A stretch of 64,000 nt of DNA. Source: a virus. The DNA lies in IMG/VR virus record IMGVR_UViG_3300037454_000146, positions 35,374-99,373 of that record. One strand, 5' to 3'. Position numbers and translations under genes: made by a program. Shown here in pieces: positions 3,307 to 63,874 of the stretch; position 1 is the first letter of the stretch, and each line of letters begins with the position of its first letter. Below the pieces are notes generated by a model. That model saw nothing but the letters and a program-made list of their open reading frames with translations. It did not search any database and was not told the origin of the DNA.

Positions 3307-3417
3307 TGGCGCACCTCCTTTCATAGTAAAGGCGCAACCAAACTAATGATTGCGCCCATTTGCTTAAAAACGACAGCCACTTTTTGGCTATATACCGTTG
3401 TTTTAAATCCGATGAAA

Positions 3418-3504
3418 TTACCTTTTCTTATAATACAAATAGCCTACGGCTCTACCACCAATTCCCGCTATTAATAATCCTACTAAAAATTTAATTATTT
3501 CCAT
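3418..3504 (-). CDS. 28-aa single-pass membrane peptide (MEIIKFLVGLLIAGIGGRAVGYLYYKKR)
   Basis: Below the ORF-track cutoff and read by hand. ATG 3504, TAA 3420-3418, AAAGGTGA upstream. Hydrophobic core with a basic tail. Sits just downstream of the tail fibre gene. Confidence 0.4.
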   Translation of the reverse strand: MEIIKFLVGLLIAGIGGRAVGYLYYKKR

Positions 3505-11389: not shown

Positions 11390-14300
11390 TTATCTGCGCG
11401 GCTTGAATACCTGACTTTCGGTCAGAACCGTCTGCATATAGGATTCCATTTGTCTCGCGAATTGCTCCGCGTTCTGTACGTTGGGGAGATTGATTACTGT
11501 GCCGTTAAATGTGACCGCGTTTGCCGTGTCGGATTTCTTGCCCAAATTCTGTGCGATTCGCATATTGCCCGTAATAGCAGAAGGTGTTAGCGCGGGAGAG
11601 TTGTGTAGCGCATTATAGAGCTTTGCCGCATCGGTCGAATTGAGCACGAGCTCGGGGCGTTGCTTTGTTCCGTGGAGCATTGCAAGTCCCGTATAAGTAT
11701 TCACTCCGCCGTCTGCGTATGCGCCTATTTTTCGTAAATATGCGTCCCAAGCCGAATTAACATCTTGATTATACTTAGACAAATCTTCTTTAACGATAGC
11801 TCTCCTAATACCATATTCGTCTACCTCTAACCTATCAAGTCTCTTTTCAATATCGTCTATGCGGTTGTCATAAGAAGAATAGTCCATACCCGCAACAGAC
11901 TCATTGAGTTCATCTTGGGCTTGAGTTAATTTGCTTATGATAGTCGAATACTTTTTATAAAACGAATCAAGATTTCGAGCCATATCGCCCTCGTCACTAC
12001 CCATGCTTAATGAAATATTGTAGGCTTCTTTATAAAAATCTTGAACCGAGTCTTTGGCTTCTTTCGCAACATTTTGCACCTTAGATTTGTATTCTTGCCA
12101 TTTCTTAATTTCTTTATCAACGGCTGCAATCTGTTTGTTTGAGGCTTCGATACTCTTATTTACAGCCACCATTTCTACATTAGAAACACGACTGAGCTCG
12201 TCGGCATACTTATCATATTCCGTTTCGTAATCATTAAGAATATCTAAGTCCTGCTCGGCAATCTTATCACGCCAATCAGCACCAAGTATCTGCTCGGCAA
12301 GTCGCTCATCTTCTGCTTTTTGCCTTTTTTGAGTAACACCTTCCCATTGTTTCAGATATTCCTCTAAGACCTTAATATCTTGATTAGCTTGCGCCTTATC
12401 TACTTCCCGTTGAGCCTTATCAATATCTGACTTCTTAGCCTCATACTGCCAACCGCCCGCTTCTGTATAGGTACGAACTTTCTTGTTTTTAGCATTTTCG
12501 AGATTTGCAAGTTTCTCCGCGAGGTCAAGAGCTTCTTCACGCTCCTCGTTCTGCTCCTTAATTGCTTCAATCTGTTCCTTGATAGCGTTTTGAACGGTAT
12601 TTGCAACCTTTTCGTAATTCTCAGTAATTTCTTCGAGAGCGTCTTTCTGTTCCTGCAAGACCGTGAGTTGCTCCTCCATTGCTTCTTTAGAGGCTTCAAT
12701 AGCAGATTTTTCAGCTTCATAACCCTCTATAACGGAATCAATTTTGTATTCCTGTGCCTTTAAAAGAGTGTCCGCTTCTTCATTGAGTTCTTTAGTAAGA
12801 TTGTTAAGCGCTTGCTGACGGTCTACTGTGTCACCAAGACTTCCGTTGTAATATTGCAACACAACATTATTGCGATCCCAATCCTCTCCAATCTCAACAA
12901 CTTTTTGTTCTGCCGTCTCTAACTGATTCTGCAATTCAACGTATTGATAATAGTTAGGATTGTGAGAGTTTTTACGCATTTCAGACCACGTGTTCATTTC
13001 AGCCCGAATTGAAGCTACTTCTTCTTGCGCGGCTTTTTTAGCATTAAGCAACTCAATTTGTTTGAGCTCTATAGATTGAATTTGTTTTTGAATATAAGCA
13101 TCTTTCAGGTCAATAAGTTGTTGCTCTGTGACTTTAAATTGTCCACTAATACTATCAAAACTTGCAGGACTTAAATATTTAGTGCCTAATTCGTCATCCA
13201 ACTTATACAAGTCCATAAATGCATCTCTGTCAATACCGTTGCCATTAGCAAGCGTCTGAAGTGCTGACTTCATAGCGTCGATATTCTTTAACGTCGTTTT
13301 CTTTAATTCGTCATAGCTTTCATACCAAGCCTCAGACATACTTTCGATTGCTGTAATTGCACCAGAAGCTCCTGTTTCAAAGGAAGAAAACAATGAATCT
13401 ACGTCTTGTTGCAAAGAAGGATAGTCTGCCCCAATTTTATTTAGCTCTTGCCTAATCTCATCAAGGCTTTGCGCCGCTTGTCTCTTTTTTATAGTGGTAT
13501 TATCACCCGCAATAACGTGATTTAATTCTTTGGCTTTATCAATCAAAGAATTGTAATTATCTAATACGTCTTGTGGAACTTCAAACGAATTATAATATTT
13601 GGTTTGACGCTCCATTTGGTCGGCATCGGCTTTATCAACTTCATATTTTGCTCTTGCCGCTACGTATTGCGCCATTAAGCCCTTATAAATATCTTCGTCA
13701 TATCCGTCGATTTCTTTATAAGTGTCGGCTATTTTTTTCCAGCCCTCAACTTGCTCCTCTAAAGTACCCATAACTGCAATGTCAGCTTCTTTGCCCCACA
13801 TATCAGTAGCTATATGGTCAAAAGCAACCCCTGTGTCATGGAACAGCTTTAACATATTAGACAAGTCGGTTGTTGTATCGGCTTTTATCTTTGCACGATA
13901 AAATTGAGTTGAATCAGAATCGGCAATTCTTGCATTTTTGTCAGTACCCTCAAGCGATTCAACGGCTTGTTTGTACCTCTTTTGATTTTCGGTATCGAAA
14001 ATGTAATCTTCAACCTTTTCTTTTTTTAACTGTCTTATCTTTTCAATTTCTTCCGATAATTTGCCATTAACCAAATCAATACCCTCGGCTTCTTCGCCAT
14101 ATTTGGATATTAATTCGCCTTGCATTGAAGATAATTCCTTTTGGATTCCAACTAAATCATCTGTAGAAGTATAAAGTTGAAGGTATCTATCCATTATTGA
14201 ATCTAACGAATTGATTTCCTCGCCCATAGCCTCTATAGATTGATGACCAGAATCGCGCAACTCTTTTGCGGCTTCAGCAGCTTTTTCTTCTGCGTGATAC

Positions 14301-14623
14301 CACTCGTCAATTTGTTTAACAACTAATGATAAAGCATAACTTAACCCAAATGATATAGCCGCATTAAGAGCTGCGGTTGCAACTTGTAATGCAATAGTCT
14401 TAGCACGAGCAACCACGAGGGATTTGACATACCCGCCCATTGTTGCTTCTGCACCATTAAGCCCTGATAGATAATTTTTTAGTCCGACATTCGAGCCGCT
14501 AATCTCATCATCAAAAGCCTCTTGGACATATTTAGCTTTATTAAGAGAATAGTTATAATCGTCTAAACTCGTTGTTATCTTCTTTATATCATTGCCAAAT
14601 TTACTAATGTCAGAACCGAATAT
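11390..14623 (-). CDS. tail tape measure protein, exon 2 (1,077 codons)
   Basis: No Shine-Dalgarno before ATG 14626. In frame with exon 1 after the predicted splice at 14624/14623. Long coiled-coil with hydrophobic helices near the N-terminus (TIALQVATAALNAAISFGLSYALSLVV). Confidence 0.7.
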   Translation of the reverse strand: MFGSDISKFGNDIKKITTSLDDYNYSLNKAKYVQEAFDDEISGSNVGLKNYLSGLNGAEATMGGYVKSLVVARAKTIALQVATAALNAAISFGLSYALSLVVKQIDEWYHAEEKAAEAAKELRDSGHQSIEAMGEEINSLDSIMDRYLQLYTSTDDLVGIQKELSSMQGELISKYGEEAEGIDLVNGKLSEEIEKIRQLKKEKVEDYIFDTENQKRYKQAVESLEGTDKNARIADSDSTQFYRAKIKADTTTDLSNMLKLFHDTGVAFDHIATDMWGKEADIAVMGTLEEQVEGWKKIADTYKEIDGYDEDIYKGLMAQYVAARAKYEVDKADADQMERQTKYYNSFEVPQDVLDNYNSLIDKAKELNHVIAGDNTTIKKRQAAQSLDEIRQELNKIGADYPSLQQDVDSLFSSFETGASGAITAIESMSEAWYESYDELKKTTLKNIDAMKSALQTLANGNGIDRDAFMDLYKLDDELGTKYLSPASFDSISGQFKVTEQQLIDLKDAYIQKQIQSIELKQIELLNAKKAAQEEVASIRAEMNTWSEMRKNSHNPNYYQYVELQNQLETAEQKVVEIGEDWDRNNVVLQYYNGSLGDTVDRQQALNNLTKELNEEADTLLKAQEYKIDSVIEGYEAEKSAIEASKEAMEEQLTVLQEQKDALEEITENYEKVANTVQNAIKEQIEAIKEQNEEREEALDLAEKLANLENAKNKKVRTYTEAGGWQYEAKKSDIDKAQREVDKAQANQDIKVLEEYLKQWEGVTQKRQKAEDERLAEQILGADWRDKIAEQDLDILNDYETEYDKYADELSRVSNVEMVAVNKSIEASNKQIAAVDKEIKKWQEYKSKVQNVAKEAKDSVQDFYKEAYNISLSMGSDEGDMARNLDSFYKKYSTIISKLTQAQDELNESVAGMDYSSYDNRIDDIEKRLDRLEVDEYGIRRAIVKEDLSKYNQDVNSAWDAYLRKIGAYADGGVNTYTGLAMLHGTKQRPELVLNSTDAAKLYNALHNSPALTPSAITGNMRIAQNLGKKSDTANAVTFNGTVINLPNVQNAEQFARQMESYMQTVLTESQVFKPRR

Positions 14624-14660
14624 CATATATTAAAAATCGTTTTTTTATTTGATTTTTAAC

Positions 14661-14714: not shown

Positions 14715-15230
14715 ATGAAAAATAATCTTATCAACGAAATTAAAAAATATTCAATCGCAGATTTAAAGATTATATTAGACACTCAACAAGATTTATATAC
14801 CATTGACGAGATGAACATTATTAGAGATTATTATGAAAAGTGTAAAAATGAATACATATCTAAGCACACACCAAAGCTAATCCCTTGCCCTAAATGTGAC
14901 GCGCAAAATGATTTTAATTCTACAACTTGCACATATTGTGGTCAACCTATAAACAACAAACCTTATTTAGATAGAATATGCAACGAAATGCTTGGGATTA
15001 TAACCGCAGAAGATGTGAAAGACGACAACGATGATTATAATGGCAAATCCCCCTCGTTCTTATTCCAGTATATAATCAGCTTCATAATACCTCTTATTGG
15101 TTTAATTGTAGGTGGCGTGTTTATTGCAAGCGATGACGAAGATAAGAACGCGTCGGGCAAGATTTGTATTGCGATTAGCATTATATCTATCATTGTAAGC
15201 ACCACTCTATATGTTTTAATATCAAAATAA
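14715..15230 (+). CDS. zinc-ribbon membrane protein (moron; possible exclusion or defence factor)
   Basis: CPKC...CTYC zinc ribbon and two C-terminal TM helices (FLFQYIISFIIPLIGLIVGGVFI; ICIAISIISIIVSTTLYVLI). AAAGGGG RBS. Opposite strand to all flanking late genes. Confidence 0.6.
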   Translation: MKNNLINEIKKYSIADLKIILDTQQDLYTIDEMNIIRDYYEKCKNEYISKHTPKLIPCPKCDAQNDFNSTTCTYCGQPINNKPYLDRICNEMLGIITAEDVKDDNDDYNGKSPSFLFQYIISFIIPLIGLIVGGVFIASDDEDKNASGKICIAISIISIIVSTTLYVLISK

Positions 15231-15234
15231 CCTC

Positions 15235-15263
15235 TTGACAAAATCTCTTGCTTGTGCTATAAT
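15235..15263 (+). promoter_or_regulatory. consensus sigma-A promoter for the repeat RNA and toxN-like gene
   Basis: TTGACA (15235-15240), 17-nt spacer, TATAAT (15258-15263). Confidence 0.7.
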
Positions 15264-15292
15264 AACCTTGCGGAGCAATCCGCACCGTGTCG

Positions 15293-15382
15293 TGTCGCTC
15301 CCGATTAGCGTCTAATAAATCATCGGATATGAATGTTTGTCGCTCTCTGATATGCGACTAATAAATCGTCAGACTCAAATCT
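15293..15382 (+). ncRNA. candidate type III antitoxin RNA: two imperfect ~45-nt tandem repeats
   Basis: Repeat units start at 15293 and 15338. Both begin TGTCGCTC and share the core GCG(T/A)CTAATAAATC(A/G)TC(G/A)GA. They lie between the promoter and the toxN-like ORF. Confidence 0.55.
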
Positions 15383-15408
15383 AAAGCCTTGCCTAATCGC
15401 AGGGCTTT
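15383..15408 (+). terminator. hairpin between repeat RNA and toxin ORF (attenuator-type terminator)
   Basis: AAAGCCUUGC-CUAAUC-GCAGGGCUUU, a 10-bp stem with one G.U pair. Only a weak U tract follows. Confidence 0.4.
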
Positions 15409-15425
15409 ACTATTAGGAGTATTTT

Positions 15426-15878
15426 ATGATTACAGGTCACTTCTATTTTCTCAAGCCAGAATATACACAACAATTTGCAAATCCAAAGTTTATGAATAAC
15501 AATGAACATAACCGCCCGTATTTCTGTGCCTTTACAGAGGATAGCCACATCTTTTGGCTTGTGCCGATTTCCTCTAAAGTGGATAAATTTGAACGTATTT
15601 ACAACAATAAAGTTGGTCGTTATGGTAAGTGTGACACCATTGATTTCTGCCACATCCTCGGCAGAAAGAAAGCGGTTTTAATCCAGAATATGTGTCCTGT
15701 AACACAAGAGTTTATTTTGAATGAGTATAACGATCCGCATGGTAAGCCAGTACAACTTTGTGAGAAAGTGCGCAAGCGCATTACTCATAAAGCAAAGAAA
15801 GTCCTCGTTCTTCACCGCAAAGGCGTTGACCTGTTGTTTGGGGACGTTCTAAAAATTAAAAAAGAATTATCAAAATAG
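15426..15878 (+). CDS. ToxN/AbiQ-family (type III TA) endoribonuclease toxin-like protein
   Basis: 150 aa. N-terminal FYFLKPEYTQQF, then NRPYFCAF...IFWLVPISSKVDKF. This resembles the ToxN/AbiQ pattern (FY..S.KY..YL ... Y.APLTSPK.K) as recalled from memory. TAGGAG RBS. Preceded by tandem repeats and a hairpin. Confidence 0.65.
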   Translation: MITGHFYFLKPEYTQQFANPKFMNNNEHNRPYFCAFTEDSHIFWLVPISSKVDKFERIYNNKVGRYGKCDTIDFCHILGRKKAVLIQNMCPVTQEFILNEYNDPHGKPVQLCEKVRKRITHKAKKVLVLHRKGVDLLFGDVLKIKKELSK

Positions 15879-15884
15879 TTGAAT

Positions 15885-16475
15885 ATCGTACCCCTAATTC
15901 CATTCACTGAGACTGAATTATGAGGTGATGAAAAAATGAGTTTTGTTTATAAACCCGTACACGTTAGAGCATATTATCGTATACGTTACGGCGCACTGGA
16001 ATATGTGCGTGAACACTATCGCTCATATCCCATAAGATAATGGGAGTTCACCAGTAATTTGGTCAGGATTCAAACTCTTTAATCCAGTGGACGGAACTAA
16101 GGGTACGATTTTTCTGCTTTCTCCACGCTTGCAGTAGCGCAAAACAATAGGGGAGAATCCTCTTTGAAACCAACGCATTTCTGCGCCTATGGACTATATC
16201 TTTGTGGTGTTACGCCACAGCTTCTTTTAGTCTCTGAACCTTCCCTTGCGGGCTTGGCTGCTGATTAACCGTTAAACAACCTTTAGCTTTTGAGCATGGG
16301 TTATCCGCATAATTTTTTCTGCTTTCGCAACATTCACGCTTGCAACCAGTGGTTGCTACGTTGTAGTCTACGCGGCTTTGGGTACTTCCAGCAATTAAAA
16401 AGCTCATTTGTGAGGGACGTATCACCCCGCAACAATTTCGTAACAATGCGAGGTTAGGCATATTCGGTTAGGTTT
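15885..16475 (-). ncRNA. group I ribozyme core and peripheral stems
   Basis: Minus-strand elements: P AAUUGCUGGAAG (16396-16385), Q AAUCAGCAGCC (16266-16256), R GGUUCAGAGACUAAA (16240-16226), S AAGAUAUAGUCC (16202-16191). GNRA hairpin CCCGCAAGGG (16252-16243). A 17-bp closing stem pairs 16109-16093 with 15901-15885. Confidence 0.75.
15936..16040 (+). CDS. possible 34-aa basic peptide (MSFVYKPVHVRAYYRIRYGALEYVREHYRSYPIR)
   Basis: GAGGTGA 7 nt upstream of the ATG. Lies inside a peripheral stem-loop of the intron on the opposite strand and may be fortuitous. Confidence 0.2.
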   Translation: MSFVYKPVHVRAYYRIRYGALEYVREHYRSYPIR

Positions 16476-18989
16476 ACCTATCCCTTTGAAGCTGCCGACA
16501 GCGGCGAGCCCTGTAAGTAAAGTCGGGAGTGTCCCGAACTTGTCGATGATTTTTGTCAGTATCTCTAAAAACTCTTTGGCGGTGTCTACCACGCCCTTAA
16601 TAAAGTCGCTACCTACGACCGTCTGAGCGAGGTCTTGGTATGCCGCCTTTAAGCTGTCAATAGAATACTGAATCGACTTCGCGTATTCTTCTTGCTCGCG
16701 ACGTGCAGAGCCCGCAGAACCCTCGGCGGTCTTGTAAACCTTTTCAAGCAACTCGCCGTTTTCGAGGATTGCCGCACCTATATTCGACTGACGTTTGCCA
16801 AATAGCTGCTCAAGAACTGAGCTTCGCGAGAGGTCATCAAGTTGACCCCACACCTTAGAGATTTCGAGAAGAATCTGATATGTTGATTTATATGTTGTGT
16901 CGTCAAGCTGAATGTCTACGCCTGTAAGCGCAAGCATCTGCTGTCTGAGCTTCGATATATTTTCAGCCGCACCCTCTGCATCCTCACCAATCTGTTCAAG
17001 CTCTGTCTTGGTTGAACGGAGACGAAGTGATACGGTTTTGATGCCCTGTCCGACAGTGGTCGGGTCTTGGGCGACAGTGTTTGCCGTGGTGATAAGCGCT
17101 ATACTTTCGCTCAGAGTGTTATTTCCAGCCGCTAACGCGGAAGCAGAGCGTTTGAGAGCCTCACCTATACCACCAGAAGATATTGCGAAGTTATTGCCGA
17201 CTTCGTTAAATTTGTCTACAATTTCTATCGAGTTCTGCGCCTCTATATTAAAGGCTTTCATCGTAGACACTAAATCTTCTGCCGCTTGTGTTTCAGTTAT
17301 GCCGTCGCCGACATTCTGATAAAGTATCGCAACCTTACCGAGCTCCTCCGCGTCGGGCAAAGATTCACCCAGTCGTGCAAAGGTGCTTGTGGCGTTGATT
17401 ACGTCGGTTATGCTCGCACCGAGCTCTTTGGCGGTATTGCCCGCAGACTTCTGAAATTTTCTGAAATCTTCTTCGGTCGCTTCAGTAACCTTGCGAAGTT
17501 CAACCATTGCCGTGTCAAGCGCCGTTACCTCGTTTACCATATCTCTAATCTGCCTCTTGACAAAATTAAAGACCATATTCGCGGTAATGTAGCTCGACAT
17601 TAGTTTGAATGAATTTAAGAATTTACCCCAAGCACTTTCACCTTTGAGTCCTGCGGCTTCAGCCTCTTTACCAAAGATGCGGAACTCCTCGCCAAGATGT
17701 TTAACTTCACTCGCGCTCAAATCCGCGCCTTTCGCCATACGAGATGTCAAGTCCGCCCACTTGGAGGCGAAAGTTGTGCCGTCAGACATTTGCTTGGTAG
17801 AATCTATGGCTCTCTTATTAGCAGAAGCATACGCTTGCATATCTGCTGAGAGTTTCTTAATCTTATTAGATAAAGAAGTTTCTCGACTAAGAGCCTTTTC
17901 TTCCTTTTGAGCCGCCTTTAAACCATTGGTAATATCTTGAATGGCTTGGCTTACTTCTCCATATTTCTTACTCCATTCTAAGCCACGACCAGATTCACTT
18001 TCAATCCGCTGCAACTCTACGAGATTTTTACTTGCATTTGCAAGATTGTCACCCAAAGACGATTTCGCGGACTCATCTGATAGAGCATCTATATCTTTTC
18101 TTAACGCATTAAGCGTATTATCAAAATTTTTAGCTTTGTTAATTGCGTTATCAAATATATTAAAGGAACTTCCAGTCGATTTTAGCGACGTTCCGATATT
18201 AGCCGCAGCCGTCTTGAGATTATCAAGTGCCTTCTGTGCGGATTCCACAGAGCCAACGCCAGACTCTAAATCAATAATGGCGTTACGAGCTGTGGTCAGC
18301 GGCTCAATTAAACCACTTTCGATTGATTTGTGGCTTGCCTCGAAATTAGCAAGCTCTTTACTTAGTCTTGCTAAATCTTGCTGTATTTTGCCAACGCCCT
18401 TGTCAGAATAAGAACCACCAATATACTCAAACTTTTGACCAGTAGAATCAAGCAAGAAATTAAGTTCTCTAACCTCGCCAGAAGCAGCCTGTATTCTCGC
18501 AATTATCTTATTTATACTATCCGCCGACTCTTGATCGTTATATTTGCCTGTAACGGTAACAGTACCCAATGATGATAGGCGACTTTGTATTGTAGCCATT
18601 GTACGCTCGGCGTTGATTATCCCGTCTGCATTTGTCGCAACCTTAAACGGCTCAACAAACCTACTATCTAAATCCGCAAGCGTTTTCTTTAAAGTGAGAA
18701 CTTTGTTTGTTACAGTTTCGACACTCTTAGCAACATTCTCGATGTTTTGCGCCGATTGTCCAGTACCAGCCTGTATTTCTATTTTGGGAATATCTATTTT
18801 CAGTTTTTTAGATATTTCGCTAACTTGATTTTGCAGAGTAGCCAAACTGTTTGTGTCGAGACTACAAGCTATTGATAATGCTTTGTTGGCATCCAATCGC
18901 TTTTTAACTTCTTCTAAATCTTTTTCAATTGTACTGACGGTCTTGGGTATGTCCAAACTCGCCACTATTTCAATTCTGTTATCGTCCAT
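16476..18989 (-). CDS. tail tape measure protein, exon 1 (838 codons; TP901-type core)
   Basis: Contains NTAKELGASITDVINATSTFARLGESLPDAEELGKVAILYQNVGDG...ISSGGIGEALKRSASALAAGNNTLSESIALITTANTVAQDPTTVGQGIKTVSLRL. The unspliced frame runs 17 further codons into the intron and stops at 16422. Confidence 0.8.
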
Positions 18990-36319: not shown

Positions 36320-37348
36320 CTATTTTATATCAGCAATACCCTTATTTTCTTGCTGTATAATGCCATCTGCGCTAAAGTATTTACCAAAGTCATCAGCCGC
36401 AGAAGCATCGTTGTAGTGGCTAATCATTTCTACAGACTCCCACTTGAAAAATTCTTTTATAACTTCTGACGGTATGTTCATTTGAACGAGCTCGGTACAC
36501 AATGCGTGTCTAAGAGCATGAAAATAGAAAGGACAACCGAGAATCTGAGTAAACTCATCTTTCCAATTCTCAATATCTGTTCTCTGTTCCCAAACGTCGC
36601 CGCGCTTTATAACAAGAACCCACTCACTGTCAATACCTAATTCTTCACGCTTCTTGCGCCATAAATCCATATAGGTATCAACTTTATTCATTACATACTT
36701 GTTTATCTGTTTGCCACGCACACCACGACCTTTGGCTCTTACCTTATCTGTTTTATAAAGGCAACCAAACTCTAAGTGGTCTGTGTTAAAGTATTCCATT
36801 TTCATTTGAAGCAGTTCTGCCTTACGCATACCTGAATAAGCAAGAATTGCAATGCAAACAGCCCTATCATATTCTTCACGTTTTACAAGTTCATCAAGTA
36901 ACTTCTGCACCTGTTCTGTAGAAAGCACAGTCTTTTCTCTGACGGCTTCATTTACAGGCGACTCAATTTTCTTGATAATACTGCGGTAATCTTCGTAACC
37001 TTCTTCCTCGTCCAATATGTTCTCGATATAATTGGAAAGGGAAGAAATTGTGGATTTAACTCGCCTTATCCTACGAGGACTCCATTTCCACACATTAAGA
37101 GCATGATTCTGAAATCTCGCAAAGTCACGTTTACTAATCTTGATAAATTCCTTATTGGCGTTTTCCTCTAAATTCCAAACAAAGAATATTTCAAGGTCAG
37201 AATTATATGCAAAAATAGTCTTAGGACTTCTGTCAATTGAAGCAAGGTAATCAAGAAAGTCTTTGCTCAACTGAACATTTTCGGGATTAATCTGCTTAAT
37301 CTTTTCATCGCTTGTAATCTTGTTGTAAACCGTTGATCTGCCTTCCAT
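36320..37348 (-). CDS. tyrosine recombinase / integrase
   Basis: N-terminal SAM-like core-binding domain. Catalytic-type residues in YSGMRKAELLQM, HALRHALCTELV and MISHYND. Confidence 0.8.
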   Translation of the reverse strand: MEGRSTVYNKITSDEKIKQINPENVQLSKDFLDYLASIDRSPKTIFAYNSDLEIFFVWNLEENANKEFIKISKRDFARFQNHALNVWKWSPRRIRRVKSTISSLSNYIENILDEEEGYEDYRSIIKKIESPVNEAVREKTVLSTEQVQKLLDELVKREEYDRAVCIAILAYSGMRKAELLQMKMEYFNTDHLEFGCLYKTDKVRAKGRGVRGKQINKYVMNKVDTYMDLWRKKREELGIDSEWVLVIKRGDVWEQRTDIENWKDEFTQILGCPFYFHALRHALCTELVQMNIPSEVIKEFFKWESVEMISHYNDASAADDFGKYFSADGIIQQENKGIADIK

Positions 37349-37379
37349 TCAATCATCTCCTTAAAATCAATTTTCTCCA

Positions 37380-38050
37380 CGAAATTACCTTTAATACAAT
37401 AAAGAGGAGTAAATAAATGCTTGTGGCTTTGCAGGACTTATCCTGAGTACCTACTGCTGCAAGCACAGCGGAGAGTACGGTTTTCATCTCTCGTAGAATC
37501 CTAAAACTCTACCCTCTATTTGGTCACACCAGACGGTGACGCTCCGTCCTTTTCGCCTTGAAAGGGCGATGTCCTTACTAATCATAGACGATGGTGCGAT
37601 AATGCGCAGGTTTGCTACTTGTCCGTAACCTACCAATGCGCAGGTTTGCCTTTCCACATTAGGTTGTGGCGACCATTAAAAGACCTTGTGTAGTCAGCTT
37701 GTAGGCATAACAGAGGCTTACAAGGTACATAAAACCTCGGATTTTGCGACAACAATTTAATCGTGAAGTTACTCTCCGAAGCTTGCTTTGGTGCGGATTC
37801 CAAGTCGTGACCTCAAAATCCACATGGGCGGTGTATTATAACTGACCACCGCCTTGCCAGTGTCGGTTCTCCCGTCAGGAGGAGTGGTGAGCAATCTCGG
37901 ATGTGCGCCGAGGACTTCCGCTTTTTATCGCGTTGCTTTACTACCAAGCTCATTGCCCATACGGGGCTTCATCATGCCCCGTCCCGTAATTTATTACTCG
38001 CCACAGCTTTCAGGCGAGAATTATTCCGCAGCCGACTAATGCCGACCGTT
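37380..38050. ncRNA. ORF-free, visibly G+C-richer, hairpin-dense region: candidate large structured RNA and/or attP arm region
   Basis: No ORF with an RBS. Perfect hairpins at 37827-37853, 37961-37982 and 37997-38018, with several others. 15-nt direct repeat AATGCGCAGGTTTGC at 37601 and 37635. Strand not resolved. Confidence 0.4.
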
Positions 38051-38055
38051 AATAA

Positions 38056-38469
38056 TCAAAATGCCCCATCGAAAATATCACGTTTTACTTTAAACGGCAC
38101 AATCTTTGCGTGTAGAGGCAACGTAACTTCTTCCGCCGATTTCTCAACAAAATAAAGTACATCATCCACGTAAGCATCGGGGTTGTCCAACGCCTTTTCA
38201 CAAATCATCTCTGCGCTATCAAAAAGAGTGATAAGCATATTTCCGTCCTGTGCCTGAACGTCATCATACGCCGCCTCCAAAAATTCAGGGCGCATTGCTA
38301 TAGACACTCCTCCAATTGTATACTGGTTGAGCAGTTGGCAAATTCCCATTGCGTTTTCCCAGCTCACAATCAAGCCAGCAACGCCATTTGACATTGCGCA
38401 ACTTATAAACTCTGTGGCGAAATCCCTGTAGTCAATAAACGTTTTGCACTGATTATCGTTGATTCTCAT
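38056..38469 (-). CDS. hypothetical protein
   Basis: 137-aa ORF with 4-nt overlap to the upstream gene. Confidence 0.5.
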   Translation of the reverse strand: MRINDNQCKTFIDYRDFATEFISCAMSNGVAGLIVSWENAMGICQLLNQYTIGGVSIAMRPEFLEAAYDDVQAQDGNMLITLFDSAEMICEKALDNPDAYVDDVLYFVEKSAEEVTLPLHAKIVPFKVKRDIFDGAF

Positions 38470-40294: not shown

Positions 40295-41101
40295 CTAATT
40301 TGAAATTTCACTTAAATCATTAAGATAAGCATATTCACCATATAACTCGATAGCCTTATCGTTATACGCTTTTGCAGCATCATATAACGTTTCAAAACAG
40401 CCTAAACTCAATCTCTTGTTTTTAAATCCAATGCGAGCTACAAACTTTTTAATAGATTTGTGATAAGAAACACCTTTAATATTAGTAGAAGAATAAGCAG
40501 ACAAACCTTTATTATAATTATTCTTCTCTTGAGTGCATATTCTCAGATTGGATTTCCTATTATCCATTGTATTGCCATTTTTATGGTCTACAACCACAGC
40601 ATTATCATCCAAAACCTTCATTAATAATCTTGACAAAGTGATATAGCCACGCCTTTTAACTCCATCTATCTTATTATAGTCTTTCATTGTTGTACAAAGA
40701 TATTGCGAGTCGTTTATGCTGCCATCTTTATGCTTTATCCTTTTATGATTTATATGCCAACAAAAATTTTCAACTATCGGTCTATCTTCTATGTCGAAAT
40801 AAAATTCTTCACCTTTAGAAGTATATCCAATGCAATAACCATCTTTTTCTTCTATGCGATTTCTTTTCTTCTTGGACATTATATTTTTTTCAATCATAAG
40901 ACATCCGCATGATATCGTTGGCTTTCTTTTCCTCTTTAAATTTTTCCCTGTTACATAAGTGATAGTGTGATTAGGACACGAACATTGACACTTCCATTTA
41001 GCCTCATGTTCCCCGCTTGGACTAATATAATCCTCTGCTTGTTCAAGCACCACTAACCTACCGAAAGTTTTTCCTGTTAAATCTTCTTTAACCTTTACCA
41101 T
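40295..41101 (-). CDS. HNH homing endonuclease with AP2 DNA-binding domain and N-terminal zinc module
   Basis: DLTGKTFGRLVVL...WKCQCSC...SCGC. HNH: VDHKNGNTMDNRKSNLRICTQEKNN. AP2-like: GVSYHKSIKKFVARIGFKNKRLSLGCFETLYDAAKAYNDKA. Confidence 0.75.
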   Translation of the reverse strand: MVKVKEDLTGKTFGRLVVLEQAEDYISPSGEHEAKWKCQCSCPNHTITYVTGKNLKRKRKPTISCGCLMIEKNIMSKKKRNRIEEKDGYCIGYTSKGEEFYFDIEDRPIVENFCWHINHKRIKHKDGSINDSQYLCTTMKDYNKIDGVKRRGYITLSRLLMKVLDDNAVVVDHKNGNTMDNRKSNLRICTQEKNNYNKGLSAYSSTNIKGVSYHKSIKKFVARIGFKNKRLSLGCFETLYDAAKAYNDKAIELYGEYAYLNDLSEISN

Positions 41102-49361: not shown

Positions 49362-49415
49362 TAAAAACCACCTTTCCTAAATTGTTTGCCTATTTATAGC
49401 CTTCTATCACCATTT

Positions 49416-49462
49416 TCGCCATTTTTGTCACTTTTTTTGGGTTTTCTCGCCATTTTTGTCAC
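49416..49462. repeat. two 16-nt direct repeats TCGCCATTTTTGTCAC (iteron-like)
   Basis: Copies at 49416-49431 and 49447-49462, 31 nt apart, just upstream of the Rep-like gene start. Confidence 0.6.
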
Positions 49463-49633
49463 CTACCAAAAATGCCCATACGCCCCTAAACATAGAACTA
49501 AACTGGTGATTTTTGAGGACTGTCACTCTTATAGTATATAGTGACCAAGTTGGGGTTCTCCACAAAGTGAATTGAACGTATCATTTCTTTCTCTGTCAGA
49601 GCATACCTACCCCGTGCTTCTCTCCTCAATCCC

Positions 49634-49662
49634 ATTATAACACTAATTTCTTACTTTGTCAA
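49634..49662 (-). promoter_or_regulatory. consensus promoter for the leftward Rep-like operon
   Basis: Minus strand reads TTGACAAAGTAAGAAATTAGTGTTATAAT. Confidence 0.65.
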
Positions 49663-50430
49663 GCCCCTAAAAGAAAAAAAAATAGCCCTTACTGTAATAG
49701 TAGCCGAGAGTTCTTTGGTAGCCCATAATAATAAATATTTATTTTTCTCTTAAAGGTTGCCCAACTCGTTCCGCAACGGCGAGAATTGAAGTAGCCACTA
49801 CTCCGCAAAAGGCTCGTAAAAGTCGCCATTCGCCCCAAAGCCCAGTATTTCGCCCAAAAGCAGGGATTCCGTCAGAGTTTGCTCCGCAATTGCTGGGATT
49901 TGCATCTTCTTTTAAAGGCTATAATAGGGGATTTGTCCGAAAATGACAGCGATGAAAAATGGCATAAATTTCGCAGACTTTAAAAATTTAATGGACAGTG
50001 CGATTCATCACCTATGCCCTGCCTGTGCTGCGGAATCAGCCCCTAAAATGTAAATATAGCCCCTGATCCATCGCCAAAAAACCGCGATATATAGCCAAAC
50101 AATTGATTTGTCCAAATGCAATTGTTTAAATTCTTATTTTATTAAAGATTCTGTAAAGATTCAAGCTCCAAAATCAGTGGCGAAAAGGTGTAAACTGTTT
50201 TTGCTTTACAGGCTTGTAAAGTGGTTTTAGTTTACAGTTCGCAAAAATGACTATTAATGAAAAGTGAAGAAAATAAGAGTATTAACAATCATAGTCAAGT
50301 TATTTTACAATAAAATATGCAATTCCGATTTGCTGGTAATAATTCACACTTTTAACAAAGTCTCTTTTTGTATTATAATGGTATTATATATAAAGGGCAG
50401 CCTGATATACAAACTGTAAAGCTTGTAATA
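49663..50430. other. ORF-free origin-like region with short dispersed repeats
   Basis: Recurrent (T)AGCC, TCGCC(A/C)AAA and TGTAAA/TTTACA words. No ORF of 60 codons or more. Confidence 0.35.
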
Positions 50431-50433
50431 TGC

Positions 50434-50658
50434 CTATTTATCGGCGTTTATGACATATTCTGATAGATCAATATTATTATGTATGCAATAGTTTATACAA
50501 GCAGTCATAAAAGCAGTACGATTTAGATTATTCTTTTTAGCTCCTGAATCAATATAATTAACAATATGCGGTCTAAGATTCATTACAATGCGTTTATAAT
50601 TATCTTTTATATACTTTTGGTCATATTTCTTTTTGTCAAATTTATTTTCTTTTTCCAT
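50434..50658 (-). CDS. putative ribbon-helix-helix regulator
   Basis: ATG 50658, 8 nt after GGAGG. KKKYDQKYIKDNYKRIVMNLRP...NRTAFMTACINYCI parallels the 58095..58436 product. Divergent from the early operon. Confidence 0.4.
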   Translation of the reverse strand: MEKENKFDKKKYDQKYIKDNYKRIVMNLRPHIVNYIDSGAKKNNLNRTAFMTACINYCIHNNIDLSEYVINADK

Positions 50659-50751
50659 GATCCAAGCCTCCAAACGCCTATTTATGGGCAATTATAAAGT
50701 TTGTGCAATTTTTTATTGTATTTTTTCAAATTTATGATTTTTTTGTGCTGA

Positions 50752-50846
50752 TTTATGCACTATGTACATAGTATAAGCTGATCCGCTTACATCCTGAAAC
50801 AGCCGACAGCCTGAATTTGGCTAGTTACCGTTTATGCACTATGTAC
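50752..50846. promoter_or_regulatory. operator repeats TTTATGCACTATGTACA (two copies)
   Basis: Copies at 50752-50768 and 50830-50846. The first contains the 14-bp palindrome ACTATGTACATAGT. A half-site, ACTATGTACAC, lies in the promoter spacer at 50889-50917. Confidence 0.5.
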
Positions 50847-50888
50847 AAAGTGTGCTATTGTTTGTGAGATATGCACAAATCGCCCAAC

Positions 50889-50917
50889 TTGAAACTATGT
50901 ACACAGTGTGGTATACT
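50889..50917 (+). promoter_or_regulatory. rightward early promoter
   Basis: TTGAAA, 17-nt spacer, TATACT, with an operator half-site in the spacer. Confidence 0.5.
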
Positions 50918-51409
50918 AAAATCACAGAAGAACGAAAGACACAAACAAAGCGGTCAGACAAACCGCAAAACATAAGCCAGTAAAGGTTAGCCAGAGTGAC
51001 CGACAAATGACAGTAACTTGAAAATTAAATAGCTCCGAATCGGTAATGTGAAAAGCCGATTGACCGCGAAAAGCTGAAAAAGCAAGTAACGCGATAATAA
51101 ACAGCCGAAAAGCCTTGACGGGATAAAGAGTAACTACCTCAAAGTCAAACGCCGATTAAGTGAGATAAAACGCGGAACGCCTAAAGCAAGTACAAAGAAT
51201 ATAAATGGAGCATAACGTAACAAGAGATACAACACGCCGATATTTTTTGAAAGTTTTTCACGGCAGTTAAGCCAATCAGAAAAACAGTACAAGTCTATTA
51301 TATCACGCTTGACTGCACAATGTCAAGCGATATCTGCCAAACAAGTTCAAGAGCTTGCAAGGCAGTCCAGAACAAGCAAATTAAATTAATATTTTAAGGA
51401 GGCATCATT

Positions 51410-58882: not shown

Positions 58883-58894
58883 GGAGTGGTTGCT

Positions 58895-59821
58895 ATGCTA
58901 GCAAACGCAAAAGAACAGTGCAACATAATAGAGATGTTTCCGCAGAACAAGCCCGACTTCTCAGCGATGATCCCTCAGAGCATACTGCCTGATACCGAGA
59001 AGGAACTCAATGAAGTTATCAGCATAGAGGATAACATGGCGGACTCCGAAGGAATGGACGCTATGAATGAGTCTATATTTAATGGCATGATTGACTATCT
59101 ATTGGAAAAAGGCAAGACAAGAGATGCACTGATGTACGTATTACAGGCGAATTTCGGAATACGCCACAGTGATCTCATTAAGCTAAAGCTCATAAACCTG
59201 ATTGACGTTGACGGAAATTTCCGCGATAAAGTTAATTGGTGCGAGCAGAAAACAAGCAAAACTCGCCAGTATGTAATTAACGATGCAGTCAAAGCGGCGA
59301 CTATTATTTATCTCAGGACTCACGCAGATAAGAAGTTGACCGACTTCCTGTTCACGGCAGAGGGGAAAAATAAGGGATATAAGAAGGCAACCTATAAAGA
59401 CGAGAACGGAAAAGTCAAGGCACTTAGAGTGAACGGAAAATTTGTCTATGAGCGCGACGAGAACGGCAATCTTATTCCAGAACCGCTACGCAGAGATCAG
59501 GCGGAGAACACCTTGAAAGATGCTCTCATTGCCATAGGCGTAAAGCTGAAGAACGACAGACGTTGCAAAGATGGTGAGTACAAACTAAATACGCACAGCA
59601 ATCGGAAATTTTACAGCGAAAAGTTTAGTGAGGTTGCTTATGAGTTAAAGGCAAGTGGAAAGCTTAATGTGGATGCCGATGTGTTAGCATTGGTACAGCT
59701 TGATTTACGTCATAGCTCAATGCAGACTACGATGCGATATAACCACAGTTTTGATAGAATAAAGGAGGTTGTTTGTCGGAATATGAACATCGGTCTTTCC
59801 GTCTTGGAGAGATACCTTTAA
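58895..59821 (+). CDS. tyrosine recombinase / integrase
   Basis: GIRHSDLIKLK (Arg), NTHSNRKF (His..Arg) and LRHSSMQTTMRYNH (His...Tyr). Confidence 0.75.
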   Translation: MLANAKEQCNIIEMFPQNKPDFSAMIPQSILPDTEKELNEVISIEDNMADSEGMDAMNESIFNGMIDYLLEKGKTRDALMYVLQANFGIRHSDLIKLKLINLIDVDGNFRDKVNWCEQKTSKTRQYVINDAVKAATIIYLRTHADKKLTDFLFTAEGKNKGYKKATYKDENGKVKALRVNGKFVYERDENGNLIPEPLRRDQAENTLKDALIAIGVKLKNDRRCKDGEYKLNTHSNRKFYSEKFSEVAYELKASGKLNVDADVLALVQLDLRHSSMQTTMRYNHSFDRIKEVVCRNMNIGLSVLERYL

Positions 59822-59948
59822 AGAGATTGAGCCAGAAATCCCGCTGGCTTTAGACGGTGGGATGAATGGCTTTGGTAAAGTATGGATAAATGGGAAAGGG
59901 GATAAATTTATATCCTCGTAAAGCAACAAATAAAATTGGGGGGATCTG

Positions 59949-61064
59949 GTGGCAAACAAAGCGTATAAATTTAGGCTATATCCGAATGAAGAACAAAAGA
60001 TATTATTTGCAAAAACCTTTGGTTGTGTCAGATTTATCTACAATCAAATGCTTTCGGATAAGATAGCACACTATAAAGAAACTGGAATGAAACTCAATAA
60101 TACTCCTGCACAATACAAGAAAGAGTTTGAGTGGCTTAAAGAAGTTGACAGTCTTGCCCTTGCAAATGCACAAATGAATTTACAGGCTGCTTATAACAAC
60201 TTCTTTAGAACACCTAAAGTCGGCTTTCCTAAATTCAAAAGTAAAAAGAGAGATAAAGATAGCTACACTACTAATAATTGTCATTCAACTAACCAAAATA
60301 ATGGCACGGTTAGTATTATTGACGGTAAACTCAGACTTCCTAAAGTTGGTCTTGTGAGAATGCTGCAACACAGAACTATTCCAGTAACCGAAAAGATTAA
60401 GTCGGCTACAATTACAAGAACGCCATCTGGCAAATATTATGCTTCTATTCTTGTGGAGTATGACAAAATTATTCCTGAGATAGAATTATCAAAGGATAAG
60501 GCGATAGGATTAGATTACGCAAGTCATAGCTTTTATGTCGATAGTCAAGGCAGAGAAGCAGACTATCCTAAGTTCTATCGTAAGGCGCAAGACAAGCTGG
60601 CACGTGAGCAACGCAAACTTGCCAACATGAAGTATGGTAGCAATAACTACCACAAACAGAAAATCAAAGTTGCGAGAGTTCACGAAAAGATTGCAAATCA
60701 GCGTTTGGATTGGATTCATAAACTCAGTACACAGTTAGCAAACGAATACGATATAGTTTGTGTGGAAGATATAAATATGCAGAACATGGCAAAGTCACTA
60801 AAATTAGGAAAGTCAACTAATGACAATGGTTTTGGAATGTTTCGAGATATTCTTTCTTACAAACTTGCTGACCGTGGCAAAGCATTTGTAAAGATTGATA
60901 AGTGGTTTCCGTCGAGCAAGATGTGCAGGCGTTGCGGTTCTATAAACCATGAGCTTACACTTTCGGACAGAGTTTGGACTTGTAGTTGCGGAGCTACAAT
61001 CAATCGTGATGAGAACGCTGCAATAAACATAATGAATGAAGGTTTGAGAATGTTATTCTCATAA
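59949..61064 (+). CDS. tnpB: TnpB (RuvC-like RNA-guided nuclease, OrfB_IS605 type)
   Basis: N-terminus KAYKFRLYPNEEQ. RuvC residues in IGLDYAS, VCVEDINMQNM and INRDENAAINI. Zinc finger CRRCG...CSCG. GTG start. Confidence 0.85.
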   Translation: MANKAYKFRLYPNEEQKILFAKTFGCVRFIYNQMLSDKIAHYKETGMKLNNTPAQYKKEFEWLKEVDSLALANAQMNLQAAYNNFFRTPKVGFPKFKSKKRDKDSYTTNNCHSTNQNNGTVSIIDGKLRLPKVGLVRMLQHRTIPVTEKIKSATITRTPSGKYYASILVEYDKIIPEIELSKDKAIGLDYASHSFYVDSQGREADYPKFYRKAQDKLAREQRKLANMKYGSNNYHKQKIKVARVHEKIANQRLDWIHKLSTQLANEYDIVCVEDINMQNMAKSLKLGKSTNDNGFGMFRDILSYKLADRGKAFVKIDKWFPSSKMCRRCGSINHELTLSDRVWTCSCGATINRDENAAINIMNEGLRMLFS

Positions 61065-63491: not shown

Positions 63492-63567
63492 TGAAGCGTA
63501 GTCAAGCGGTTAAGACAACAGATTTTGACTCTGCCATTCGGAGGTTCAAATCCTCTCGCTTCAACCA
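63492..63567 (+). tRNA. trnQ: tRNA-Gln (anticodon UUG), CCA encoded
   Basis: Hand-folded cloverleaf. Acceptor TGAAGCG/CGCTTCA (U1-A72), anticodon loop TTTTGAC, T arm GGAGG-TTCAAAT-CCTCT. Confidence 0.75.
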
Positions 63568-63700
63568 TGTGTTTCTTCATCTAATAGTTCCTTTCAGATG
63601 CCCTGCGGAGAGGGCAAAATCTCCGCAAATTTTAAAATCTACACACTTTGGCTTTGTCATTGTGTTGACCTCCTAAGCCCGTCATTGTGGCGGGCAATAA

Positions 63701-63783
63701 GCTCCCTTGCTGGAATAGGCAGACAGGGCAGTCTCAAAAACTGTTGCGAAAGCGTGTGGGTTCAAGTCCCACAGGGAGCACCA
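63701..63783 (+). tRNA. trnL: tRNA-Leu (anticodon CAA), long variable arm, CCA encoded
   Basis: Acceptor GCTCCCT/AGGGAGC, anticodon stem GCAGT/ACTGT with loop CTCAAAA, variable arm TGCGAAAGCG, T arm GTGGG-TTCAAGT-CCCAC. Confidence 0.75.
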
Positions 63784-63786
63784 AAT

Positions 63787-63874
63787 GTGGTAGTGGTGCA
63801 ATTGGCGAGACACACAGGACTTAAAATCCTGCACGACTGATACATTACGGGTTCAACTCCCGTCTACCACACCA
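63787..63874 (+). tRNA. trnL: tRNA-Leu (anticodon UAA), CCA encoded; variable arm pairs poorly
   Basis: Acceptor GTGGTAG/CTACCAC, anticodon stem CAGGA/TCCTG with loop CTTAAAA, T arm ACGGG-TTCAACT-CCCGT. The 15-nt variable region CACGACTGATACATT has no clear stem. Confidence 0.6.

Follow-up and report, generated by a model that had tools for sequence, protein, structure and literature searches.

The DNA analyzed here is a stretch of 64,000 nucleotides (positions 35,374 to 99,373 of IMG/VR virus record IMGVR_UViG_3300037454_000146; the whole stretch is referred to as the window). It is part of the genome of a tailed phage, encoding a tape-measure protein, a portal protein, and a large terminase, and nearly all of its genes between 240 and 49361 are oriented leftward. 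Within this gene block, the start of the open reading frame (ORF) for a tyrosine recombinase (the integrase) and the stop codon of an ORF of 137 amino acids (ORF137) enclose a gap of 707 nt (37349-38055), inside which no credible ORF is present. This gap is probably a small-RNA island of the phage, namely, a tandem mosaic array of transfer RNA (tRNA) and tRNA-like cassettes that runs leftward with the operon.

An earlier note, made from the letters of this DNA alone, had pointed to an ORF-free, hairpin-dense, and G+C-richer block next to the integrase and had called it the sole long gap in the leftward operon. Both observations hold. The G+C content of the gap is 0.468, compared with 0.405 for the window (300-nt windows within the gap reach 0.48-0.52), the whole block folds better than shuffled sequences on either strand (z = −2.8 and −3.5), and the runner-up among the gaps of the leftward gene block, of which this one is the largest, measures 383 nt. 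The helices listed in the note were recovered as well (GGCGGTG 37827/CACCGCC 37847; ACGGGGC 37961/GCCCCGT 37976; CTCGCC 37997/GGCGAG 38013; ACCTTGT 37683/ACAAGGT 37720), and CTCGG/CCGAG, GACGG/CCGTC, CAGGA/TCCTG, and CTGCTG/CAGCGG were all found in the block. Its view that the block is structured noncoding RNA rather than a missed gene is borne out by the lack of a credible ORF and by helices that, when homologous regions of other phages were compared as the note had proposed, turned out to covary.

Three tRNA-like units on the minus strand

All 64 kb of the window were scanned on both strands for a 7-bp acceptor stem stacked on a 5-bp arm with a 7-nt loop and followed by a discriminator A and CCA. 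This strict scan yielded nine hits: the three true tRNAs of the window, four hits stemming from three distinct units in the gap, and two strays. By chance, as determined with composition-matched shuffles, 0.46 hits would be expected in 64 kb and 0.005 in a sequence the size of the gap. A relaxed scan that did not require the CCA returned the same three gap units, all of which carry ACCA. The three true tRNAs, which served as the internal control of the scan, form a plus-strand cluster (63492-63874; Gln-UUG, Leu-CAA, and Leu-UAA) and are canonical, with encoded A-CCA, GG in the D loops, and UUC in the T loops.

The tRNA-like units, designated modules (i), (ii), and (iii) (Table 1), fold as cloverleaf or minihelix on the minus strand only. 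Furthermore, some 20 G·U cells in the conserved helices would be A·C mismatches on the plus strand, and only one case is the opposite. Because these G·U cells pair on the minus strand, the RNA strand is minus, like that of the operon. The strand, which the earlier note had left undecided because of conflicting signals, can thus be assigned.

Module (i) consists of a 7-bp acceptor stem (GGGCAAU/AUUGCUC), an invariant D arm (GCUU GGUAGUA AAGC), a T arm (CUCGG-CGCACAU-CCGAG), a discriminator A, and an encoded CCA; the place of the anticodon arm is taken by a 3-bp stem with an 8-nt loop, GAUAAAAA. The cloverleaf is the minimum free energy (MFE) structure of the minus strand, accounting for 73% of the ensemble, and the plus-strand complement folded no better than shuffles. 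Homologues were sought with a covariance model (R1) and pattern scans; the model detected eleven variants in ten further phages, scoring 70-102 bits. Across nine aligned copies, 144 of 144 stem cells are paired, and half of the pairs (8 of 16) have changed on both sides. None of 500 shuffles matched these values, and slid registers paired to only 31-55%. In phage L060, the acceptor and T stems are entirely different while the D arm and the loop GAUAAAAA are kept, and the 3-bp stem closing this loop covaries (UCC/GGA versus CGC/GCG). A second subtype of the module (subtype B; L042, L061, and L063) has a 6-bp stem and a 6-nt loop at this place, and the arm is therefore not an anticodon arm in any version. 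The subtype-B loop sequence ACAGAGG matches CCUCUGU in the loop of hairpin C (see below) perfectly in L042 and L061 and with a mismatch in L063; the match is absent from the subtype present in the window.

Module (ii) is reduced further. Its acceptor helix, GUGGAUU/AAUCCGC, is stacked on the T stem UUGAG/CUUGG with the 7-nt loop GUCACGA and is followed by a discriminator A and CCA. The minus strand folds far better than shuffles (z = −3.8; 91% of the ensemble), the plus strand does not (z = 0.15). Variants in L062, L065, L063, and L074 retain all pairs through wobble-mediated changes. The 5-bp anticodon stem and 7-nt loop of a decoding tRNA are found in neither module (i) nor module (ii), the latter having no such arm at all. 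Beyond these modules, pairing also survives sequence change in hairpins 2b and C and in the three leader hairpins of the block.

Module (iii) has the geometry of a canonical tRNA, i.e., stems of 7/4/5/5 bp, the anticodon loop CUUUCAA with U33, anticodon UUC, and a purine at position 37 (A37), a discriminator (A73), and CCA. Its D loop of 11 nt contains UAGU in place of GG, and its T loop is AGCGUCA in place of UUCRAAU. The cloverleaf is again the MFE structure, on the minus strand only. ARAGORN called module (iii) as the single tRNA in the gap, from default thresholds down to 90%, where the window still yields no spurious calls; a transfer-messenger RNA was found in the block neither by ARAGORN nor by Rfam. 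The gene recurs in L062 and L065 (with one T-loop substitution) and in L080-82, where a C-G pair of the anticodon stem is replaced by U-A in compensatory fashion; the loop CUUUCAA is unchanged across the three variants. At the same place, L003 carries a canonical tRNA-Asn between flanks near-identical to those in the window, and L060 and L061 carry, at the equivalent place, a canonical tRNA-Glu(UUC) unrelated to module (iii). GAA is the second most used codon of the phage (38.9 per thousand). Recognition by the glutamyl-tRNA synthetase (GluRS) of Escherichia coli depends on U34, U35, C36, and A37, on U11-A24, on U13·G22 together with A46, and on a variable loop of 4 nt. All these nucleotides are present in module (iii), although the rules for E. 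coli may not be those of the host. By its sequence, module (iii) is probably a working, if odd, tRNA-Glu.

A shared noncanonical elbow

A census of 5-bp arms closing a YGCAMHU loop covered the window and the loci of its relatives (640 kb). Of 30 distinct arms, 26 lie at a distance from an acceptor helix that fits a tRNA; almost without exception, these 26 are on the sense strand of the island with A-CCA after them (in a family of ∼52 nt, A-CCG or C-ACC instead). Besides module (i), the members comprise a tRNA-Met with the loop CGCACAU (L010 and L015) and a family of 42-72 nt, designated (iv), the middle hairpin of which may be missing. A second minihelix family, (v), with a 9-nt loop of the UGCAAUGAU type, is related and was detected separately.

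Ordinary tRNAs have U55 and G18. The cloverleaf members of the island have G55-C56 in the T loop and A18-G19 (within UAGU) in the D loop, and all cloverleaves examined combine either UAGU in the D loop with G55 or GG with U55. This pairing of traits looks like covariation of the 18:55 tertiary contact.

Two of these families deserve mention in their own right. With CGCACAU as a noncanonical T loop and AGUAGUUA as the D loop, the tRNA-Met(CAU) (L010, 3734-3809; L015, 3602-3677; about 13 other loci) nevertheless scores 47-53 bits against the Rfam tRNA model and may be a functional tRNA that has a G55/A18 elbow; in L019, this slot is occupied by a canonical version. The family of ∼52 nt (L005, about 3366-3422; L010, 3435-3489; L015, 3296-3350) occurs in more than 30 loci of a distant phage group. 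It has an acceptor helix, a T arm with UGCAAAU, and a 19-nt connector containing UGCAGUAGACC; both stems covary fully.

Mosaicism and independence from the integrase

Relatives of the locus were anchored by the integrase in IMG/VR and in metagenome contigs, which resulted in 43 loci; BLAST searches of GenBank phages with the block, and with the surrounding 16 kb, gave no match. Phages whose integrases are 89-99% identical share the block in patches only, and entire modules are exchanged, inserted, or absent. In most relatives, the ORF137 homologue is followed by 600-1000 nt devoid of ORFs, and an antirepressor-like ORF is often inserted before the integrase. Bona fide tRNAs for Asn, Met, Thr, and Trp, called by both ARAGORN and Rfam (46-76 bits), are present in these gaps. 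The joints between modules lie directly after ACCA and directly after the UGCGCAUUAU leader.

The only match in bacterial genome bins, L065, is a phage-like contig of 122 kb in a Eubacteriales metagenome-assembled genome; from this one bin, the host is likely a Firmicute. The proteins of L065 are 23-52% identical to those of the window (portal, 52%; glycosyltransferase, 35%; ORF137, 34%), whereas the RNA modules are 93-99% identical at the nucleotide level. In L065, the island is located directly between ORF137 and the glycosyltransferase gene, and no integrase is present. The same holds for the L066, L078, and L080 groups, contigs that were reached via ORF137 homologues and have the island without an integrase at this position. 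The island therefore moves between phages as RNA cassettes. Judged from this distribution of sequences, the integrase is a separate accessory insertion.

The exact 15-nt direct repeat that the earlier note had reported at 37601 and 37635 was found there as well; shuffles gave 0.15 matches even when two mismatches were allowed. Its cores, UGCGCA, are self-complementary and 34 nt apart, and the two copies can pair. Elsewhere in the window, TGCGCATT does not occur. Altogether, 12 variants of a TGCG[CT]ATT pair at exactly this 34-nt spacing were found, their spacers being of at least five unrelated kinds, and phages without an integrase at the locus are among the carriers (L065 and the L066 and L080 groups). 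In L062, the cores are UGCGUA and UACGCA, i.e., complementary rather than identical, and in L004, two G·U pairs would form. The second copy ends 2-4 nt (2 nt in the window) before the 5′ end of whatever cassette follows, which may be the Glu-like module, tRNA-Met, tRNA-Asn, canonical tRNA-Glu, or a member of family (iv). This favors a role of the repeat as a leader helix or as a shared boundary sequence for cassette exchange.

Proposed mechanism and alternative explanations

Because neither a promoter- nor a terminator-like site was called on the minus strand in the gap, the operon transcript is proposed to read through it. RNase P would then cut 5′ of each unit, and trimming from the 3′ end would halt at the encoded CCA, as in tRNA clusters. 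Module (iii) would be charged by GluRS, read GAA and GAG, and supplement decoding. Modules (i) and (ii) would not decode; they may be stable tRNA mimics that the G55/A18 elbow bars from translation and that act on factors reading the top half of tRNA, such as RNase P, the CCA-adding enzyme, or toxins and transferases directed at the acceptor end. At the same time, they might serve as punctuation marks in the operon transcript, between its early and late genes. It may also be that these two modules do no more than punctuate.

Several points weigh against the interpretation of the block as an array of tRNAs and tRNA-like RNAs. Modules (i) and (iii) had no match to the Rfam tRNA model (RF00005) at E ≤ 10, i.e., they score below ∼16 bits, where 29 are needed; the copies of these noncanonical elements in L065 are likewise without a match. 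For module (iii), the low score is due to UAGU instead of GG in the D loop and to the T loop AGCGUCA. Given such scores, recognition of modules (i) and (iii) by RNase P, an aminoacyl-tRNA synthetase, or the CCA enzyme cannot be assumed. The encoded CCA is not absolutely conserved: one copy of module (i), in L062, ends in ACAA, and module (ii) lacks CCA in L062 and L065. Most module copies are very much alike, so that covariation leans on a few divergent phages (L060, L042/L061/L063, L076, and L080), and the candidate pseudoknot of hairpin 2b (see below) and the candidate pairing of the UGCGCA cores rest on one or two informative substitutions. A tRNA-handling enzyme or Fem-type transferase was not found in the window. 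Finally, anatomy, strand, covariation, and cassette behavior can be read off directly, but processing, charging, and mimicry are predicted.

If the units served as processing punctuation only, RNase P and RNase Z signals would part the ClpP/PhoH/ORF137 message from the integrase/glycosyltransferase/packaging message and set its stability, without any function in trans, similar to tRNA punctuation in mitochondria or to the mascRNA of MALAT1. RNase P accepts acceptor-T minihelices, and units without an anticodon arm would be enough for it; the island sits constantly at one gene-module boundary, after the ORF137 stop codon located in hairpin H1, and the lack of promoter- or terminator-like calls on the minus strand fits read-through. 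Punctuation as the sole function is nevertheless unlikely. A single unit would be enough for cleavage, yet several families are kept in series, and the D arm and the loop GAUAAAAA of module (i), which play no part in RNase P cleavage, are nonetheless invariant or covarying. The high identity of the modules between phages with such divergent proteins also suggests selection on, or transfer of, the RNA products. That the units are tRNA genes decaying in a recombination hot spot, their odd loops and missing anticodon arms reflecting mutation, is very unlikely. Canonical tRNAs do occupy the corresponding slots of relatives, the anticodon-arm region of module (i) varies by subtype, and a few copies have lost the CCA. 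However, decay should break stems, whereas every stem cell of module (i) pairs and half of its pairs are compensatory; the noncanonical D and T loops are conserved and covary jointly in independent families, covariation is also seen in the 3-bp stem that closes GAUAAAAA, and module (iii) keeps its anticodon loop invariant while the stem compensates.

The earlier note had offered two explanations of its own. One took the repeats for arm-type sites of the phage attachment site (attP), and the block or its repeats might indeed be such sites of the adjacent tyrosine recombinase, perhaps with tRNA fragments of the bacterial attachment site (attB): the block is immediately upstream of the recombinase gene, the direct repeat is exact, and tRNA genes are common integration targets. 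We consider this highly improbable, as the repeat pair and the island persist in phages without the integrase, the copies in L062 have changed in complementary instead of parallel fashion, and the units hold both strands of the acceptor helix, not a 3′ tRNA fragment alone. Relatives of the integrase, sought as a lead to prophage junctions, were not found in a collection of bacterial genomes from 185,579 species. An attP may exist somewhere close to the integrase, though nothing speaks for it. The other explanation, one large ornate RNA resembling ROOL or GOLLD with a single fold of ∼0.6 kb, would fit the size, G+C enrichment, and hairpin density of the block, as well as a phage with a likely Firmicute host, tRNAs nearby, and close relatives from the same metagenome series. 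It is barely conceivable now: Rfam 15 gave no match to ROOL, GOLLD, raiA, or any other family on either strand of 37200-38200, be it at gathering thresholds or at E ≤ 10, none of the conserved helices is long-range, and modules are present, absent, or reordered in close relatives, which a single tertiary fold would not tolerate.

Beyond the array of tRNA and tRNA-like cassettes favored here, a more far-reaching proposal is possible, if on the unlikely side: the G55-type, CCA-ended elements without an anticodon arm could constitute a new class of tRNA mimics that has spread as cassettes among unrelated gut and rumen phages and acts as decoys or sponges of host factors. Tentatively, the class would comprise the cloverleaf (i), the minihelices (ii) and (v), family (iv) of 42-72 nt, and the family of ∼52 nt. 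Its speculative targets would be defense toxins that modify or cleave CCA ends, RNase P, and CCA enzymes, with the altered elbow avoiding EF-Tu and the ribosome. In a bolder version, the cassettes would form an integron-like system and recombine at the UGCGCAUUAU leader and the ACCA ends.

For phage tRNA genes, the usual explanation is codon supply; escape from defenses that cleave tRNA has been put forward more recently. The island adds families of tRNA look-alikes that have an acceptor/T half, CCA, and a covarying odd elbow and have given up the anticodon. These families are kept by compensatory change and passed between very distant phages. Rfam contains none of them, and all but one escape tRNA finders. 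If they are stable RNAs, how a phage would benefit from the top half of a tRNA alone becomes a testable question, for which the sequence families, covariance models, and exact predictions of cleavage sites are supplied as a starting point. As to annotation, a G+C-rich gap without ORFs in a phage from gut or rumen may be such an array instead of a single large RNA or an attachment site.

Further elements of the island

The remaining elements are listed in Table 1. The architecture of three leader hairpins upstream of module (i) recurs with differing sequences in eight phages, and in the window, H3 ends 2 nt before the module. Hairpin 2a still forms in the register and sequence variants seen among the eight phages. 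At the junction between module (i) and hairpin 2a, the sequence CACCACUCCUCCU is invariant in all copies (segment S2) and resembles the anti-Shine-Dalgarno end of 16S ribosomal RNA, CACCUCCU; within hairpin 2a, CACCACUCCUCCU pairs with GGGAG.

In hairpin 2b, ACUGGC (37856-37861) and GUCAGU in the loop (37841-37846) are candidates for an H-type pseudoknot, with one-sided, wobble-compatible changes only. As MAFFT misaligned hairpin 2b of L063 and L025, its pairs were scored by a script with explicit helix definitions. A TATAAT in the loop of hairpin 2b was rejected as a promoter: it is not conserved in L003 and L062, and its spacing to a −35-like hexamer, judged by eye, is 14 nt. A scan for sigma-70 promoters and terminators called nothing on the minus strand inside the gap. 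The optional hairpin occurs in the window, L001, L042, and L074 and is lacking in L003, L062, and L065. Hairpin C has a conserved loop of 30 nt (AAGCCUCUGU...AAGCUGACUAC) and the tail CUUUUAAU. Intrinsic terminators were taken to be G+C-rich stems that have short loops and are followed by at least five U in a row; hairpin C and the S4 hairpin were rejected as such, with no call in 37200-38200, loops of at least 30 nt, and tails of 3-4 U. The module of four short hairpins follows other tRNAs in L003 (Asn) and L061 (Met) with 90-95% identity, which is too similar for a covariation test. The Shine-Dalgarno sequence of the integrase gene, AAGGAG, comes after AAUUUCGUGGAGAAAAU.

Table 1. Elements of the island and its flanking genes, in the order of leftward reading (positions in the window; MFE, minimum free energy structure).
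Feature	Position	Strand	Basis and remarks
ORF137, conserved upstream neighbor	38056-38469	−	Stop codon inside the H1 stem
Leader hairpin H1, inner stem CGGUCGGC/GUCGGCUG	38029-38048	−	MFE; outer stem extends to the ORF137 stop codon
Leader hairpin H2, CUCGCC/GGCGAG	37997-38018	−	Covaries: GGCACG/CGUGCU in L066, CUUGCG/CGCAAG in L076
Leader hairpin H3, ACGGGGC/GCCCCGU	37961-37982	−	Covaries: UGCCUC/GAGGCA in L074, UAGGGGC/GCCCCUA in L076
Module (i), tRNA-like cloverleaf, 74 nt	37885-37958	−	Strict geometry scan, fold, covariance model R1
Hairpin 2a, CUCCU/GGGAG	37869-37884	−	Directly after the ACCA of module (i); kept in eight phages
Hairpin 2b, GGCGGUG/CACCGCC	37827-37861	−	Stem covaries: GGCGGCA/UGCCGCC in L063
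Module (ii), tRNA minihelix, 35 nt, 12 bp	37789-37823	−	Strict scan, fold, relatives
Optional hairpin, GCUUCGGA...UCCGAGGU, then UUUU	37734-37782	−	One-sided wobble changes in L001
Hairpin C, stem ACCUUGU/ACAAGGU	37675-37726	−	Four different covarying stems in eight phages
Small hairpin, CCACA-ACCUAA-UGUGG	37654-37669	−	Kept in the window, L003, L060, L062, and L065
Leader with 15-nt repeat AATGCGCAGGTTTGC	37599-37649	−	Copies at 37635-37649 and 37601-37615
Module (iii), noncanonical tRNA-Glu(UUC), 78 nt	37521-37598	−	ARAGORN, fold, relatives
Four short hairpins, GUAGA.., GAGAG.., GCUG.., CAGGA..	37432-37512	−	MFE
Remnant leader, AAUUUCGUGGAGAAAAU	37349-37386	−	Precedes tRNA-Met in L004 and L065
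Tyrosine recombinase gene, 342 amino acids	36320-37348	−	Pfam Phage_integrase, 67 bits; neighbor of the island, not part of it

Gene neighborhood

ORF137 adjoins the island on the upstream side in all contigs in which this side could be checked. Its 49 homologues are all unannotated. Sequence searches of Pfam, PHROG, NCBIfam, and the PDB gave no match, and the AlphaFold model (predicted local distance difference test score [pLDDT], 85) matched no fold in the PDB; only weak matches (E about 2e-3) to uncharacterized Siphoviridae proteins were obtained. A pattern search of IMG/VR yielded no confirmed relative. In relatives of the locus, ORF137 comes after an HU-like gene, a YonJ-like or Metallophos gene, and a gene for a beta-CASP nuclease.

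The window further encodes PhoH, ClpP, an HNH-AP2 endonuclease, and TnpB. Outside the block, Rfam 15 detected a group I intron and the three tRNAs. The intron (RF00028, 60.7 bits; 16171-16457, minus strand) is located at the 3′ edge of the tape-measure gene (16422-18989), and downstream of it lie a 1078-amino-acid ORF without a family match (11390-14626) and, on the plus strand, two small ORFs (14715-15878); an intron with homing-endonuclease passengers may interrupt the tape-measure gene. The HNH-AP2 ORF, which resembles homing endonucleases (40295-41101; G+C, 0.30), breaks the row of leftward genes and is probably a recent selfish insertion. Where gene orientation switches from left to right (49362-51409), hardly any long ORF is found over ∼2 kb (an 85-amino-acid ORF is flanked by gaps of 1072 and 718 nt), and an origin or a regulatory region may be located here. 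A second, weak tyrosine recombinase (Phage_integrase, 27.2 bits) is encoded directly upstream of the TnpB/IS605 OrfB gene (58886-61064), the product of which has HTH_OrfB_IS605, OrfB_IS605, and Cas12f1-like TNB domains; the guide (omega) RNA is usually found just downstream of TnpB.

Comparison with known systems

No direct precedent was found in the literature on phage tRNA-like decoys, minihelices, pseudo-tRNAs, and noncanonical T loops. With ROOL (RF03087) and GOLLD (RF01998), the island shares the phage or prophage setting, tRNAs nearby, and a likely Firmicute host, but it matches neither covariance model and is a modular mosaic block, not one conserved multi-domain fold of 500-800 nt. A catalogued motif of unknown function, the DUF3800-I small RNA (RF02969), occupies one slot of the island in L065 (2074-2184, between the Glu variant and tRNA-Met; 44.9 bits versus a gathering threshold of 44.2). 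It is not present in the window, where the corresponding stretch, the module of four short hairpins at 37432-37512, is unrelated and matches nothing. Like arm-type sites of attP, the direct repeats lie beside a tyrosine recombinase gene; unlike these, they persist without the integrase, have a self-complementary core, and change in complementary fashion.

The mascRNA of MALAT1, the viral tRNA-like RNAs of murine gammaherpesvirus 68 (MHV68), and the 3′ tRNA-like structures of plant viruses are mimics of the acceptor/T half with a reduced or absent anticodon domain and a CCA end. Modules (i) and (ii) of the island share these three traits, whereas those structures are eukaryotic or from RNA viruses. 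Their sole echo in Rfam was a nonsignificant match (13 bits) of family (iv) in L065 to Tymo_tRNA-like.

The elbow has a counterpart in the nonproteogenic (NP) tRNA-Gly species of staphylococci (NP1-3), which are used by FmhB, FemA, and FemB and have TGC for TTC in the T loop and no Ψ55; with altered D and T regions, they bind EF-Tu and the ribosome poorly and feed cell-wall synthesis (PMC7826273). The T-loop signature of these tRNAs (TGC or TGT, with G55) is found here as YGCAMHU in the 26 acceptor-bearing elements. In the window, modules (i) and (iii) have CGC and AGC, respectively, where the staphylococcal tRNAs have TGC; G55-C56 is thus common to all, U54 is not. The hosts would be alike in being Firmicutes, as far as the one Eubacteriales bin tells. 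The NP tRNA-Gly species are full chromosomal tRNAs with a Gly anticodon and Fem partners, whereas modules (i) and (ii) have no anticodon arm, the units of the island include no Gly anticodon, and no FemAB-family gene is among the neighboring genes.

The closest likeness is to phage tRNA clusters. The tRNA region of phage T4 comprises eight tRNAs along with species 1 and 2, two stable RNAs whose function is unknown. As in T4, a single strand carries small RNA genes in tandem between gene modules, genuine tRNAs occur side by side with tRNA-like RNAs, RNase P would be expected to release the RNAs, and gene content varies among related phages. In contrast to such clusters, all units in the window are noncanonical, two of them are non-decoding, and a G55/A18 elbow is common to them; moreover, the cassettes move between phages whose proteins are only 23-52% identical. 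The island is a phage tRNA cluster with several RNA families absent from Rfam.

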